A DNA stretch of 32,000 nt from Bdellovibrionales bacterium (GTDB lineage: Bacteria; Bdellovibrionota; Bdellovibrionia; Bdellovibrionales; UBA1609): NCBI GenBank assembly GCA_963692945.1, contig OY843585.1:900001-932000 (forward strand), given 5' to 3'. Below, in pieces: positions 9,897-17,386 of the stretch. The notes below the pieces were generated by a model, which saw nothing but the letters and a program-made list of their open reading frames with translations, was not told where the DNA came from and ran no database searches. Every line of letters starts with the position of its first letter. The first letter of the stretch is position 1. Made by a program: the position numbers and the translations under genes.

Positions 9897-10077
9897 AAAT
9901 ATAAACCTTTCTTTTAATAGACCTTAATCTATAGTGACAGAAGTGAGATTGAATTTTTAGAAATTCATCATAAAAAATGAATTATAATCCTTTAGTCTAG
10001 TTCATTAGGGAAGACCTCAGTTCCTTTATTGAAAGTCCTAGCATTTAGTTAGAAAGGGACTATTTTTTGTCACAACA

Positions 10078-10143
10078 GGAAAAAAATTCATTTTCATTGA
10101 AAAGAAATGGTGTTTTTTTATTTTTTGATCATAATGTAACTCT
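10078..10143 (+). promoter_or_regulatory. conserved upstream element, copy 1 (putative promoter or 5' leader of the protease-SLR paralogs)
   Basis: GGAAAAAAATTCATTTTCATTGAAAAGAAATGGTG-T(n)-A-T(n)-GATCATAATGTAACTCT. It contains the palindrome TTTTCA-T-TGAAAA and a CATAAT -10-like hexamer. The same element occurs before all four paralogs. Confidence 0.5.
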
Positions 10144-10156
10144 AGTCTTTAATGTT

Positions 10157-11521
10157 ATGAAATTTTTTATTGTTCTTTTTTTATTGAATTTTTCTCTTTT
10201 AGCAAAAGCTCAAAATTTTACATCTCAAACGACTCAATCTCAAGATGAGCTATCTGTCCATAAGCCAACTGAAGTTCTTGAATCTGATCTTTTACAAGCA
10301 GAAAAATCTATATGGCGTATAGAAACTTTTTCTGGCAGGGCGACTGGATTTTTTATAGATTCAAAACATTTTGTGACCAATCTTCATGTTATAGCCAATG
10401 TACAAGACTCTGATATAAAACATATTCGTTTATCTCAAAAAGACAATCCGTCTGTCTTTTGGGTAAATAAAGTTCTAGCTGTATCTGTTTTATATGATCT
10501 AGCCATTCTTGAAACAGAAGAATCTTCAAGTCATTACTTGAGCCTAAGAGAGAACCCAGTGGAAACAAGTGAAAATCTTTTTATATCTGGTTATCCTTTC
10601 GGTTCTTTTAAAAGAATTGGAAACACAGGAAATATTCATCATGAGGATGCTCATATGTTTTCTTATTTTATAGATCATTCTTCTTTAGAAGGTGCAAGTG
10701 GTAGTCCTATTTTAGATAATGAAGGACATGTTGTTGGAGTGCTTTTTGGAGGGACTCTTTATAAGGTATCAATAATAAAAATAAAACATCTAAGAGGTCT
10801 TATTGTTGGTGATATAGGACGAAACTGTAATGAGGAAAATTTCATTAAATGTCAAAAGAAATCTTTTAATCAATTTAAAAGTTATGCTTATAAAAATAAT
10901 TTTCTTGCTCAATACCAATTGGGAGCCATGTATTATTATGGTGAAGGAGTGGAGCAAGACTTTGAAGAATCTTTTAAATGGATTCATAAATCAGCCATGC
11001 AAAATCATCCTCCCGCTCAATATTTGATAGGAAAAATGTATTATTATGGTGAAGGAGTAGAGCGAGATGTAGAAGAATCTTTTAAATGGGTTCATAAATC
11101 AGCCATGCAAGATTATTATCTTGCTCAATATTTTATGGGAAACATGTATTATTATGGTAAGGGAGTAGAGCAAGATGTAGAAGAATCTTTTAAATGGTTT
11201 CACAAATCGGCTCAACAAAACCATCTTCTTGCTCAATACCAATTGGGAATCATGTATTATTATGGTGAAGGAGTGGAGCAAGACTTTGAAGAATCTTTTA
11301 AATGGCTTCATAAATCAGCCATGAAAGATCATCCTCCCGCTCAATATTTGATAGGAAAAATGTATTATTATGGTGAAGGAGTAGAGCGAGATGTAGAAGA
11401 ATCTTTTAAATGGGTTCACAAATCGGCTCAACAAGATTATTCTCTTGCTAAAGGAATCTTGGAACTGATGTTGCATGACAAAAAAATGAATCAAACCTCA
11501 GGAAAATCTGCTATTTATTGA
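10157..11521 (+). CDS. secreted trypsin-fold serine protease fused to Sel1-like repeats, paralog 1 (acidic repeats)
   Basis: Starts at the conserved MKFFIVLFLLNFSLLAKA|Q signal peptide. The longer ORF from 10067 would translate the conserved non-coding upstream element. Triad motifs are FVTNLHVI, YDLAILE and GASGSPILDNEGHVVGV. The linker is NCNEENFIKC. Five 36-aa repeats follow (AQYxLGxMYYYGEGVExDxEESFKWxHKSAxQ), and the C-terminal tail is unique to this paralog. Confidence 0.7.
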   Translation: MKFFIVLFLLNFSLLAKAQNFTSQTTQSQDELSVHKPTEVLESDLLQAEKSIWRIETFSGRATGFFIDSKHFVTNLHVIANVQDSDIKHIRLSQKDNPSVFWVNKVLAVSVLYDLAILETEESSSHYLSLRENPVETSENLFISGYPFGSFKRIGNTGNIHHEDAHMFSYFIDHSSLEGASGSPILDNEGHVVGVLFGGTLYKVSIIKIKHLRGLIVGDIGRNCNEENFIKCQKKSFNQFKSYAYKNNFLAQYQLGAMYYYGEGVEQDFEESFKWIHKSAMQNHPPAQYLIGKMYYYGEGVERDVEESFKWVHKSAMQDYYLAQYFMGNMYYYGKGVEQDVEESFKWFHKSAQQNHLLAQYQLGIMYYYGEGVEQDFEESFKWLHKSAMKDHPPAQYLIGKMYYYGEGVERDVEESFKWVHKSAQQDYSLAKGILELMLHDKKMNQTSGKSAIY

Positions 11522-11593
11522 AAAACCTCTATTTGTTTTTAATTTTTAATAACTAGCATTGAGTTAAAAATTAATCTTATTTTTATCATAATA

Positions 11594-11658
11594 GGAAAAA
11601 AATTCATTTTCATTGAAAAGAAATGGTGTTTTTTATTTTTTGATCATAATATAACTCT
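11594..11658 (+). promoter_or_regulatory. conserved upstream element, copy 2
   Basis: Near-identical to 10078-10143. T-tract lengths differ by one nucleotide. Confidence 0.5.
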
Positions 11659-11668
11659 GGTTTTTTTA

Positions 11669-15250: not shown

Positions 15251-15256
15251 ATTAAT

Positions 15257-15886
15257 ATGAGCTTAAAATCCACTATTTTTTATTTTGATGTCCAAAACTT
15301 ATTTAGAACTGCTAAAGCTTGCTTTAATAAGGATACAGTTACTCATCCAAATTTTGACCCTGTTAAGTTAGCTAATTGGGTGTGCGCTAGACAGCACTTA
15401 AAATTAAAAAATATTAAATTTTATACAGGCGTCCCTCCAAAATCTAGAGATCCATTATGGCATCATTTTTGGAGTAAAAAAATAGCCTCTCTTAATAGAA
15501 ATAGTTTAGTAGAAACATTTGTAAGAACAACAAGGTCAAGGCCTGTTAAGTGTGAAACCTGTCTAGAAGAAAAGAATGCCACAGTTGAGGTAGAAAAAGG
15601 TATTGATGTAAGGATTGCTATAGATATTGTAAGAGACGCTATTGATAAGGAGTCAGAAGCTATTGTAATTTTTAGTCAAGACCGAGACTTATTAGAAGCT
15701 ACAAAGGAAGCTAAAAAAATAGCCAGAAGTCAAAAAAGACAATTAGACATGTACTCTGTATTCCCTGCCTCTCACATACCTTCACGCAGAGGAGGGCTTA
15801 GTAACACTAAGTGGATTTTTTTAACAGAAAAAGATTATAAAGGATGTATTGATCCCGCAGATTATAGAGAGATTTTAAGAAAATAA
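15257..15886 (+). CDS. NYN-domain (PIN-like, LabA family) putative ribonuclease
   Basis: NYN signature pattern: N-terminal IFYFDVQNL (acidic Asp), central KGIDVRIAIDIV, and IVIFSQDRDL (compare SGDsDF). Size is 209 aa. There is no obvious Shine-Dalgarno sequence. Confidence 0.65.
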   Translation: MSLKSTIFYFDVQNLFRTAKACFNKDTVTHPNFDPVKLANWVCARQHLKLKNIKFYTGVPPKSRDPLWHHFWSKKIASLNRNSLVETFVRTTRSRPVKCETCLEEKNATVEVEKGIDVRIAIDIVRDAIDKESEAIVIFSQDRDLLEATKEAKKIARSQKRQLDMYSVFPASHIPSRRGGLSNTKWIFLTEKDYKGCIDPADYREILRK

Positions 15887-15991
15887 AAAAACTATATAAG
15901 TAAGTTAGAGTGTCATCATAAAAAATGAACCGTTTTTTGTCATAATAGGAAAAAAACTCATTAAAAATGAACTGTTTTTTTGTCATAATAG

Positions 15992-16056
15992 GGAAAAAAA
16001 TTCATTTTCATTGAAAAGAAATGGTGGTTTTTATTTTTTTATCATAATATAACTCT
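15992..16056 (+). promoter_or_regulatory. conserved upstream element, copy 4 (preceded by a degenerate partial copy at about 15946-15990)
   Basis: GGGAAAAAAATTCATTTTCATTGAAAAGAAATGGTGGTTTTTATTTTTTTATCATAATATAACTCT. The sequence TCATCATAAAAAATGAA at about 15913 also occurs upstream of paralog 1, at about 9967. Confidence 0.5.
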
Positions 16057-16066
16057 GGTTTTTTTA

Positions 16067-17386
16067 ATGTTACTAGGAAAAAAGAAAGGTTTTAATACTA
16101 TGAAATTTTTTATTGTTCTTTTTTTGTTGAATTTTTCTCTTTTAGCAAAAGCTCAAGATGATCTATCTGTCCATAAACCAACTGAAGTTCTTGAATCTGA
16201 TCTTTTAGAAGCAGAAAAATCTATATGGCGTGTAAGAGTAAATTTTTTTGAATCGGGGACTGGATTTTTTATAGATTCAAAACATTTTGTGACCAATTTG
16301 CATGTTATAGCAGATGCACGAGACTCTAGTATAAAACGTATTCGTTTATTTCAAAAAGACAATCCATCTGTCATTCGAGTCAAGAAAGTTCTAGCTCTAT
16401 CTCTTTTACATGATCTAGCCATTCTTGAAACAGAAGAATCTTCAAGTCATCATCTTAACATAAGAGAGAGCCCAGTGGAAACCAGTGAAAATCTTTTTAT
16501 ATCTGGTTATCCTTTCGAGTCTTTTGAAAGAGTTGGAAAAACAGGAAATATTTACCATGAGGATGCTTATGTGTTTTCTTATTTTGTGGATCATTCTTCC
16601 TTAGCCGGTGCAAGTGGTAGTCCCGTTTTAGATAATGAAGGAAGGATTGTTGGAGTGTTTTTTGGAGGGATTCCTTATTTTGTATCAATAATAAAGATAA
16701 AACATCTAAGAGGTCTTATTGCTGGTGATATAGGACAAAACTGTAATGAGGAAAGGTTTAATAAATGTAAAAAGAAATCTTTTAACTGGCTTCACAAATC
16801 AGCCATGCGAAATCATCTTTTTGCTCAATATAAATTGGGATTGATGTATTATACTGGTGATGGAGTAGAGCAAGATTTAGAAGAATCTTTTAAATGGCTT
16901 CACAAATCAGCCATGCAAGGTCATCCTGTTGCTCAATATTATTTGGGAACACAGTACTACTTTGGTTTTGGAGTAAAGCGAAACTTTAAAGAATCTTTTA
17001 AATGGATTCGCAAATCAGGTATGCAAGGTTATCCTATTGCTCAATACATATTGGGAATAAGGTATTATAATGGTAAAGCAGTAGAGAGAAAATTTAAAAA
17101 ATCCTTTGAATGGCTTCATAAATCAGCCATGCAAGATTTTCCTGCTGCTCAATACGAATTGGGAAAGAAGTATTATCGTGGTAAGGGAGTAGAGAGAAAC
17201 TTAGAAGAATCTTTTAAATGGATGCACAAATCAGCCATTCAAAATTATCCTGTTGCTCAATACAAGTTGGGAAGAATGTATTATAATGGTGAAGGAGTAG
17301 AGAGAAACTTTAAAGAATCTTTTAAATGGTTTTACAAATCAGGCATACAAAGCTTACCCACTTGCTTAAAGGTTTTTAAAAAATAA
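16067..17386 (+). CDS. secreted trypsin-fold serine protease fused to Sel1-like repeats, paralog 4
   Basis: Alternative start at 16100 (MKFF..). Triad motifs are FVTNLHVI, HDLAILE and GASGSPVLDNEGRIVGV. Five repeats; the linker half-repeat is fused directly to a canonical repeat (KKSFNWLHKSAM). The tail is KSGIQSLPTCLKVFKK. Confidence 0.7.
   Translation: MLLGKKKGFNTMKFFIVLFLLNFSLLAKAQDDLSVHKPTEVLESDLLEAEKSIWRVRVNFFESGTGFFIDSKHFVTNLHVIADARDSSIKRIRLFQKDNPSVIRVKKVLALSLLHDLAILETEESSSHHLNIRESPVETSENLFISGYPFESFERVGKTGNIYHEDAYVFSYFVDHSSLAGASGSPVLDNEGRIVGVFFGGIPYFVSIIKIKHLRGLIAGDIGQNCNEERFNKCKKKSFNWLHKSAMRNHLFAQYKLGLMYYTGDGVEQDLEESFKWLHKSAMQGHPVAQYYLGTQYYFGFGVKRNFKESFKWIRKSGMQGYPIAQYILGIRYYNGKAVERKFKKSFEWLHKSAMQDFPAAQYELGKKYYRGKGVERNLEESFKWMHKSAIQNYPVAQYKLGRMYYNGEGVERNFKESFKWFYKSGIQSLPTCLKVFKK

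Follow-up and report, generated by a model that had tools for sequence, protein, structure and literature searches.

Four tandem paralogues of a trypsin-like protease fused to Sel1 repeats in a low-GC Bdellovibrionales bacterium

Introduction

Serine proteases encoded side by side are known from staphylococci, where the Spl proteases are encoded in tandem in the spl operon. Among the Sel1 repeat proteins, LpnE, EsiB and Hcp are exported and act in protein-protein or host interaction. Helical-repeat partners of serine proteases are known as well, as the tetratricopeptide repeat (TPR) lipoproteins NlpI and LbcA act in trans for Prc and CtpA, respectively. MarP is a periplasmic S1 protease acting on a peptidoglycan hydrolase. 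A combination of protease and Sel1 repeats in one chain was already listed in a survey of prokaryotic serine proteases from 2008, which recorded YP_374752.1 of Pelodictyon luteolum as Tryp-(Sel1)6 with the function 'indeterminate' (PMC2605481). The present study deals with four genes for proteins of this kind, here called paralogues 1 to 4, which are located on contig OY843585.1 of the Bdellovibrionales bacterium assembly GCA_963692945.1. The whole stretch of DNA that was analyzed, referred to as the window, comprises 32,000 nucleotides (nt; positions 900,001 to 932,000 of the forward strand), and all coordinates are counted from its first letter.

An initial annotation of the window, made from the sequence and a list of its open reading frames (ORFs), had described the four proteins as a locally amplified family of secreted proteases with a Sec signal peptide, a Trypsin_2-like domain, a Cys-x7-Cys linker and Sel1-like repeats, each gene being preceded by its own copy of a shared upstream element. 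It had regarded this architecture as not recognizable as a characterised one and had drawn a parallel to enzymes of the HtrA type. These claims were followed up by domain searches, structure prediction and comparison with related genomes.

Results

Four intact paralogues

According to the ORF list of the window, the four genes lie between positions 10067 and 17386, all on the forward strand and therefore co-oriented (Table 1). ORF list and protein alignment agree with the initial annotation in that all four genes are intact, and the alignment likewise upholds the completeness of the catalytic motifs, as FVTN[LF]HVI, [HY]DLAILE and GASGSP[IV]LDNEG..VGV are present in every copy. The same is true for the linker motif NCNEE.F.KC, which contains the Cys-x7-Cys pair and is followed by five, five, six and five Sel1 repeats in paralogues 1 to 4, respectively, if the units are delimited by AQY.LG...SFKW. 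On the protein level paralogue 1 is the most divergent copy, with 69-71% identity to the other three, and paralogues 2 and 4 share about 80-82% of their residues with paralogue 3. Over stretches of 300 nt the DNA of the copies agrees in 87-94% of positions, so that a chance resemblance can be excluded. No additional fragments of the family were found elsewhere in the window.

The start codon common to all four copies is an ATG (MKFFIVLF...; positions in Table 1). The TTG at 10067, from which the ORF list lets paralogue 1 begin, is a mechanical extension across the conserved upstream block; this TTG lies in sequence that does not code for protein in the remaining copies. The sequence following the Cys pair (KKKSFNQLKSYAHKNYPAAQY) visibly duplicates helix B of the repeats (EESFKW.HKSAMQNYPAAQY), so that the 'linker' is more precisely composed of a Cys loop and half of a repeat. 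Paralogue 4 has this half repeat fused in frame with the repeat pattern to helix B of a complete unit (KKKSFN-WLHKSAM, the hyphen marking the junction), which points to the loss of one repeat unit by recombination; the spacer of this copy is also shorter by 10 amino acids (aa). One of the five repeats of paralogue 2 is shortened to 33 aa.

Domain content, predicted fold and affinity of the protease

The assignment to S1/Trypsin_2 and Sel1 was confirmed by hidden Markov model searches, in which all four proteins scored above the gathering cut-offs. Trypsin_2 (PF13365) was found in each of them with 63-70.5 bits (cut-off 27.6; E 7e-17 to 3e-19), and PF00089 was also above its cut-off (22-25 bits vs 20.6). 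Sel1 (PF08238) reached 146-193 bits (cut-off 30.7; E 1e-43 to 2e-58), again in all four proteins, with four to six matching stretches each.

A structural model was predicted for paralogue 3 with AlphaFold2 on the basis of a 50-sequence family alignment (mean predicted local distance difference test score, pLDDT, 90.6; predicted template modelling score, pTM, 0.83). In this model, a leader helix and a disordered spacer are followed by a conserved helix (aa 47-57) and a beta-rich domain, which is all-beta with a C-terminal helix and exhibits pLDDT values above 90 over residues 58-230. From residue 238 onward the chain forms 15 helices, one of them unpaired and the others arranged in seven pairs, with pLDDT values above 90 up to about residue 470. 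A Foldseek comparison with the Protein Data Bank (PDB) matched the beta half to MarP (Rv3671c), RsgI9, DegQ, DegS, DegP, V8, Esp and SplE, and for MarP, DegQ, DegS, V8 and Esp the Foldseek probability was 1.00 at template modelling (TM) scores of 0.6-0.76 relative to the target. The helical half matched the Sel1 solenoids 6ok3, EsiB (4bwr), LceB, LpnE and HcpC with best root-mean-square deviations of 1.5-2.6 Å, the values for 4bwr and 6ok3 being 1.5-1.8 Å over 234-238 residues. No single solved chain in the PDB spanned both halves. Model and Foldseek matches thus bear out the expectation of a double beta-barrel protease fold joined to a Sel1 solenoid.

When the PDB was ranked by sequence with the protease profile, SplE, SplA, Jep, SplD, SplB, Esp and V8 came first (E 1e-16 to 2e-9), and MarP and the Deg proteases followed at lower ranks of the same search (E 7e-7 or weaker). 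The His, Asp and Ser of the putative triad align with TNKHV, EDLAI and GNSGSP of SplE, SplA and Jep. Across the 50 family members, Asp and Ser never vary, and conservation of His is 90% or higher. Judged by their sequence, the four proteases are presumably catalytically active. As the profile ranks the staphylococcal S1B enzymes first, the domain is best placed in family S1 of clan PA, with S1B as a closer relative than HtrA.

The parallel to HtrA, with the Sel1 repeats taking the place of PDZ, therefore holds as an analogy only. The HtrA/DegP models of NCBIfam scored far below their cut-offs (TIGR02037: 15.1 bits vs 416.2; NF047968: 18-23 bits vs 470), Pfam matched no PDZ domain in the four proteins, whose C-terminal halves consist of Sel1 repeats, and the nearest sequences are those of S1B proteases (SplE, SplA, Jep, V8). 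Membership in HtrA/DegP (S1C) was rejected on these grounds. The top NCBIfam match of the protease was MarP (NF033740) with 45-52 bits at a cut-off of 250, only the protease part being aligned; as this is below the cut-off and the proteins have a single leader rather than four transmembrane helices, they were not assigned to the MarP family either. For the Sel1 half, MerG, MotX, AlgK and ExoR gave partial NCBIfam matches below the cut-off.

A known family with an uncharacterised function

Among the 120 best matches to paralogue 3 in a collection of 5.8 billion proteins, about three quarters carry both PF13365 and PF08238. MDE0151851.1 (P0021), encoded in a metagenome-assembled genome (MAG) of the Bdellovibrionales, matches paralogue 3 over 97% of the query with 33% identity (E 2e-102) and bears the NCBI name 'bifunctional trypsin-like peptidase domain-containing/SEL1-like repeat protein'. 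A search with protease and linker against 1.84 billion cluster representatives yielded 3015 matches at E<=1e-3, of which 475 remained at E<=1e-10 and 84 at E<=1e-30. Sel1 repeats occur in 122 of the best 150 representatives, which makes the fusion the rule in a family of considerable size; they are C-terminal to the protease in 120 and number from one to 11. In a further 20 of the best 150 the sequence stops directly behind the protease, probably as a result of truncation. The architecture, which had been thought not to be a characterised one, is hence not new: it is named by NCBI, was surveyed in 2008 (PMC2605481) and dominates its family. Its function is uncharacterised, and searches of the literature turned up no study of what a Trypsin_2-Sel1 fusion does.

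The order and number of the domains vary in some members. By Pfam, a Nitrospinaceae genome and a Rhodospirillaceae MAG encode the same domain pair, as does a Rhodoferax MAG with the order reversed. Two protease domains split by Sel1 repeats are found in P0122 (881 aa), P0027 (760 aa) and P0124 (947 aa). P0123 (1289 aa) consists of six tandem protease-like domains with no Sel1 repeats and no Pfam match at E<=1e-5, and could be a single-chain array of degenerate proteases or pseudo-proteases. Sel1 modules closely similar to those of the window were also observed in fusions with other catalytic domains, namely a caspase-like domain (PF00656; P0023, P0030, P0102), a protein kinase domain (PF00069; P0060, P0067, P0111), Hsp70 (P0036) and an exonuclease domain (PF00929; P0085, P0092).

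Lineage and arrays in related genomes

The window is chromosomal and encodes, besides the four paralogues, guaB, guaA, dnaE, lipB, a prolyl oligopeptidase, an acyl-CoA synthetase, Omp85/TamA and TamB. Its G + C content is about 30%, and its contig has a length of 1.56 Mb. GuaA is 70-76% identical to proteins encoded on contigs of 1.2-2.3 Mb, and the few named neighbours are MAGs labelled 'Oligoflexia bacterium' and 'Bdellovibrionales bacterium'. The literature describes small low-GC MAGs of the Bdellovibrionota as putative predators or symbionts that are associated with sponges (PMC9944714). Three of the contigs with neighbouring GuaA sequences (1.89, 1.93 and 0.55 Mb) also encode protease-Sel1 proteins, and in a scan of GTDB full-length relatives of protease plus linker were confined to 'Bdellovibrionales' MAGs and one Rhodospirillaceae MAG.

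Arrays longer than that of the window were found at two loci. Locus L082 (ERZ25072779 contig_4, 580301-601881) contains six consecutive protease-Sel1 genes and adjoins an integrase fragment, a Y1 transposase, a Fic gene and a DUF1016 nuclease. Locus L083 (ERZ25071928 contig_1, 62445-84049) contains thirteen such genes in 21.6 kb, including shortened members of 287 and 301 aa. Two further loci (L081 and L001) carry one pair of such genes each. The leaders are near-identical inside each array, with an overall protein identity of 67-85% in L082 and 45-92% in L083. Both long arrays occupy chromosomal sites other than that of the window array.

Constant upstream block and leader, fast-changing protease and repeats

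The initial annotation had also noted a shared element in front of each gene, and the search for it agreed: the 66-nt block occurs in exactly four copies in the window, preceding these genes only, with none expected by chance. Among the four copies 5 of 66 columns (7.6%) vary, a level of conservation that is reached by 2.6% of the 66-nt stretches of coding sequence. The block contains TTGAAA-16-TATTTT, and as promoter-like sites are no commoner in the window than in shuffled sequence (30 observed vs 33 expected), its role as a promoter is a suggestion only. A structured RNA was considered as well and rejected, since Rfam finds just two tRNAs in the window.

Within the four copies, variation is lowest in the upstream block and the signal peptide. 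The proportion of variable columns rises from 3.7% in the signal-peptide codons to 17% in the protease and 30% in the Sel1 region, and third codon positions are no more variable than other positions. Pairwise ratios of non-synonymous to synonymous substitution rates (dN/dS; Nei-Gojobori) amount to 0.5-1.2 for the protease, at dS 0.06-0.16, and to 0.5-1.65 for the repeats, at dS up to 0.43; only a small number of silent sites in this AT-rich DNA underlies these estimates, and gene conversion is possible. In neutral simulations with 64-154 substitutions placed at random per copy, at least one stop codon arose in 99.3-100% of the trials. As all four frames and the catalytic motifs are intact nevertheless, the copies do not seem to be decaying.

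Replacements occur beside the catalytic Ser (E vs A before GASGSP) and within the FGG..Y segment that follows VGV, and by analogy with the chymotrypsin fold these positions would line the substrate pocket. The net charge even changes its sign, paralogue 1 being acidic and the other three basic (Table 1). Identities, dN/dS and charge together speak for the local amplification and diversification that had been assumed for the four genes. The window proteins form their own recent branch of the family; they share 70-82% of their residues among themselves and at most 45% with any protein outside the four.

Export signal and cysteines

All four copies begin with the leader MKFFIVLFLLNFS[LI]LAKA-Q (the hyphen marking the putative cleavage site). 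Its inspection revealed a short basic n-region (MK), an 11-residue hydrophobic core with Kyte-Doolittle values of 2.6-2.8, an AxA site and no lipobox Cys, features that fit the Sec signal peptide predicted for each copy. Of the 120 family representatives whose N-termini are complete, 109 likewise have a hydrophobic leader. The description of the proteins as secreted went further than this leader allows. The organism is a diderm, as Omp85/TamA and TamB are encoded in the window, and in such a cell a predicted Sec leader means export to the periplasm only and does not imply release from the cell.

The mature proteins contain only two to three Cys residues each. In alignment A3, which comprises the seven closer family members, both Cys of the pair are invariant, and in alignment A2, with 21 members, conservation of the second one is 90% or higher. 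Few Cys residues, a conserved pair and a hydrophobic leader fit with an oxidising compartment, and the Cys-x7-Cys loop probably forms a disulfide. In Hcp proteins every repeat contains a disulfide. Disulfides of this type came into question for the window proteins through the Cys-x7-Cys spacing and were dropped, as there is a single Cys pair, located ahead of the first half repeat.

Surroundings of the array

Table 1. Features of the protease-Sel1 locus and its surroundings in the window.
Feature	Position (nt)	Strand	Description
Cys-rich protein with signal peptide	8565-9896	-	443 aa; directly upstream of the cluster, on the opposite strand
Upstream block, copy 1	10078-10143	+	66 nt; TTGAAA-16-TATTTT at 10097-10124, then a short 5' untranslated region
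Paralogue 1	10157-11521 (ORF list: 10067-11521)	+	454 aa; shared start ATG 10157; signal peptide, S1 protease, Cys224-x7-Cys232, 5 Sel1 repeats; net charge -12
Upstream block, copy 2	11594-11658	+	
Paralogue 2	11669-13030	+	453 aa counted from first ATG; shared start ATG 11702; 5 Sel1 repeats; net charge +22
Upstream block, copy 3	13076-13140	+	
Paralogue 3	13141-14589	+	482 aa; shared start ATG 13165; net charge +31
Paralogue 3, disordered spacer			aa 28-48
Paralogue 3, protease	13312-13830		aa ~58-230; His86/Asp123/Ser190
Paralogue 3, Cys loop	13837-13863		Cys233-x7-Cys241
Paralogue 3, Sel1 region			half repeat + 6 Sel1 repeats, aa 238-481
Tail after paralogue 3	14590-14927	+	A/T-rich hairpin repeats; ends GTTTTGTAAATGGCGG; paralogous to the tail of paralogue 4
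NYN-domain ORF	15257-15886	+	209 aa; Pfam E 1.5e-7; PADLOC HEC-09 E 3e-9; phrog_7929
Upstream block, copy 4	15992-16056	+	
Paralogue 4	16067-17386	+	439 aa; shared start ATG 16100; 5 Sel1 repeats; net charge +16
Tail after paralogue 4	17387-17777	+	terminator-like hairpin 17394-17411; same hairpin repeats; ends at copy of tRNA-Ser 3' end
ORF of 87 aa	17771-18034	+	from tRNA-Ser fragment through first 141-nt unit into spacer before the second

The tails of paralogues 3 and 4 (14590-14930 and 17387-17780) are the only places in which the hairpin repeats GCGAAAAACAGAAGTTTTTCTCTA and their variant GAAAACCAGTAGGTTTTCTCTAG occur. The motif GCGAAAAACAGAAGTTTTTCTCTA is present in five copies in the window, with none expected, a repeat finder lists seven copies of a 41-nt family, and one hairpin copy scores as terminator-like. 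These repeats may be stacked terminators or a small mobile repeat.

A tRNA-Ser(gga) gene is located on the minus strand at 18315-18404, its 3' end reading AAATGGCGGAGAGAGGGGGATTCG on the plus strand. This 3' end is repeated at about 17769-17791 and at 18053-18076, within two 141-nt units that are 99% identical (17762-17902 and 18046-18186), and a shorter trace of it (GTTTTGTAAATGGCGG) lies at 14911-14927, at the end of the tail of paralogue 3. The tRNA-Ser fragments look like nested remnants of attachment (att) sites left by integrations at tRNA-Ser. These att-like fragments place the protease cluster in a variable region flanked by tRNA genes, which extends from tRNA-Val (8474-8550) to tRNA-Ser. 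The 87-aa ORF that starts in one of the fragments has no PHROG match and is almost certainly not a gene.

Paralogues 3 and 4 are separated by a unique insert (14928-15918) in which the NYN-domain ORF is located. The sequence TAAGGCTTTACGCCGATAAT upstream of this ORF (about 15170-15190) resembles a promoter of the sigma-28 type. The 443-aa protein on the other side of the cluster gave a single match, weak and sub-threshold, to SLT (lytic transglycosylase; E 0.004) and none in NCBIfam, PADLOC or PHROG.

Discussion

Taken together, the four genes are best understood as copies of a tandem-amplified, Sec-exported S1 protease which is steered by its Sel1 solenoid and whose targets have diversified, an interpretation with roughly even chances of being right. 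It would start from one lineage-typical gene that was amplified recently and in place in a small-genome, AT-rich bacterium of the Bdellovibrionota/Oligoflexia. After cleavage of the leader, the mature protein would consist of a flexible spacer of about 20 aa, the clan-PA S1 domain, the Cys-x7-Cys loop and a rigid Sel1 solenoid. The solenoid would bind a protein partner and hold the protease on particular targets, in the manner of a built-in adaptor, and the fusion of closely similar Sel1 modules to other catalytic domains suggests that it is a reusable targeting module. Duplication and fast change of both domains could then give rise to variants with different targets, with the conserved promoter and leader keeping the copies co-regulated and exported. 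The targets would most likely lie outside of the housekeeping of the cell itself, among the proteins of prey or host. A more far-reaching idea, which is put forward tentatively and falls somewhat short of even chances, is that the arrays (four genes here, six and thirteen in relatives) are a hallmark weapon set of reduced-genome, AT-rich Bdellovibrionota/Oligoflexia, a rapidly diversifying protease family in which the solenoid directs each paralogue to a distinct prey or host protein.

Several observations weigh against an adaptor-guided protease aimed at prey or host. A Sec leader accompanied by no further signals defaults to the periplasm in a diderm, several of the best partial NCBIfam matches of the Sel1 half (MerG, MotX, AlgK, ExoR) are periplasmic proteins, and the window holds nothing that would identify a host, a prey or a secretion system. 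The related array L083 lacks the Cys pair. Moreover, dN/dS values around 1 may also arise where selection is weak, as in a genome that is small and prone to drift.

The periplasmic features lead to an alternative in which the proteins are envelope proteases with a built-in adaptor that remain in the periplasm of the producing cell, the Sel1 solenoid binding and feeding the cell's own envelope or peptidoglycan-remodelling proteins to the protease. Such a role would fit with a Sec leader as the only signal in a diderm cell, with MarP as the top structural match of the protease half and with the resemblance of the Sel1 part to periplasmic MotX, AlgK, ExoR and MerG, all of which are below cut-off. 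It would also fit with the view of Sel1 repeats as peptidoglycan-associated modules (PMC7159879) and with the reported control of the lytic transglycosylase MltF by a Sel1-like protein in Pseudomonas (PMC10746161). However, housekeeping proteases are normally single-copy and conserved, whereas here 4-13 tandem copies are found at different sites of 1.5-2 Mb genomes, with identities of 45-92%, a variable number of repeats and a reversal of the net charge, and the closest solved sequence relatives are secreted staphylococcal proteases. An envelope function of this kind is considered unlikely. That the proteins are general digestive proteases, breaking down protein broadly for nutrition like many hydrolases of Bdellovibrio, kept in several copies for dosage and merely anchored, oligomerised or stabilised by their Sel1 part, appears still less probable, and indeed rather implausible. 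The many copies under one common promoter block and the placement of the lineage within a phylum of predators (PMC9944714) could be explained in this way, but dosage predicts near-identical copies, and both domains diverge at replacement sites, even beside the catalytic Ser. Furthermore, the retention of the fusion in 120 of 150 representatives, with 1-11 repeats, suggests that the solenoid is under diversifying use.

Two other explanations have very little probability left. If the proteins were effectors of anti-phage or conflict systems, the trypsin-like domain serving in defence or cell suicide as in RT-protease or Lamassu/Hachiman-type proteins, the partial match of the protease to PADLOC RT-Protease_XI (E 1e-19), its weak matches to HamA1/LmuA and the HEC-09 match of the neighbouring NYN ORF (E 3e-9) would be accounted for. 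Yet the PADLOC matches of the protease span about 180 of 506-510 model positions and cover the protease part only, a reverse transcriptase, a nucleoside triphosphatase or a sensor partner is absent, and a predicted cleavable leader together with a conserved Cys pair fits with export rather than with cytoplasmic defence, so that a defence function is highly improbable. Just as hard to believe is a neutral drift of decaying, mostly non-functional duplicates. It would agree with dN/dS around 1 and with the equal variability of all codon positions, but neutral trials produced stop codons almost without exception, whereas the four real frames are open with intact motifs, and promoter block and leader are strongly conserved.

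If the Sel1 solenoid indeed steers the protease, the arrays would constitute a natural series for the reprogramming of protease targeting by a repeat domain, and they would give a pointer to how small-genome relatives of Bdellovibrio handle their prey or hosts. Should the arrays in addition be a weapon set, they would represent a protease counterpart of variable effector families, with adaptor-guided proteolysis in a single chain. The useful new points of this study are comparative ones: the concentration in one lineage, the long tandem arrays, the constant promoter and leader next to a fast-changing remainder, and the charge reversal. Apart from that, four members are added to a family which is recognised by databases and experimentally unstudied.

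Among the known systems, Prc-NlpI and CtpA-LbcA come closest to the proposed mode of action, as a helical-repeat adaptor presents the substrate to a serine protease. This is a functional analogy only: Prc and CtpA are S41 proteases with separate TPR lipoproteins as adaptors, the window proteins are S1 proteases with a fused solenoid, and the catalytic parts are not homologous. HtrA, DegP, DegQ and DegS share with the window proteins the clan-PA fold, a C-terminal protein-binding module and the presumed envelope location, but the assembly into trimers or cages that defines HtrA function has no sign in the window proteins. Structurally, the protease half comes closest to MarP (Rv3671c) of Mycobacterium tuberculosis, with a Foldseek E of 1e-10 and a target-based TM score of about 0.7; MarP is, however, anchored by N-terminal transmembrane helices and lacks Sel1 repeats.

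By sequence profile, the closest solved proteases are those of the staphylococcal S1B group (SplA-F, Jep, V8/GluV8 and Esp; E 1e-16 to 1e-9, identity about 20-25%). The protease of both groups is a single compact chymotrypsin-fold domain behind a leader, with aligned His, Asp and Ser. Unlike the window proteins, Spl and V8 lack repeats at their C-terminus, and their activation depends on an exactly processed N-terminus. The barrel of the window proteases is preceded by a disordered 20-aa spacer and a conserved helix, part of which may be a propeptide. The Sel1 half is 30-38% identical, over about 235-245 residues, to bacterial Sel1 proteins (6ok3 from Oxalobacter, EsiB/c5321 (4bwr), LpnE, LceB and HcpC), but these known solenoids carry no catalytic domain. 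Both halves are united in the fusion family named by NCBI, whose names describe nothing beyond the domain content and to whose other members the window proteins are at most 45% identical. There, leader, Trypsin_2 and Sel1 follow each other in the same order as in the window, and most members also possess a linker of the form G-x-x-C...C-x-K-K-E.

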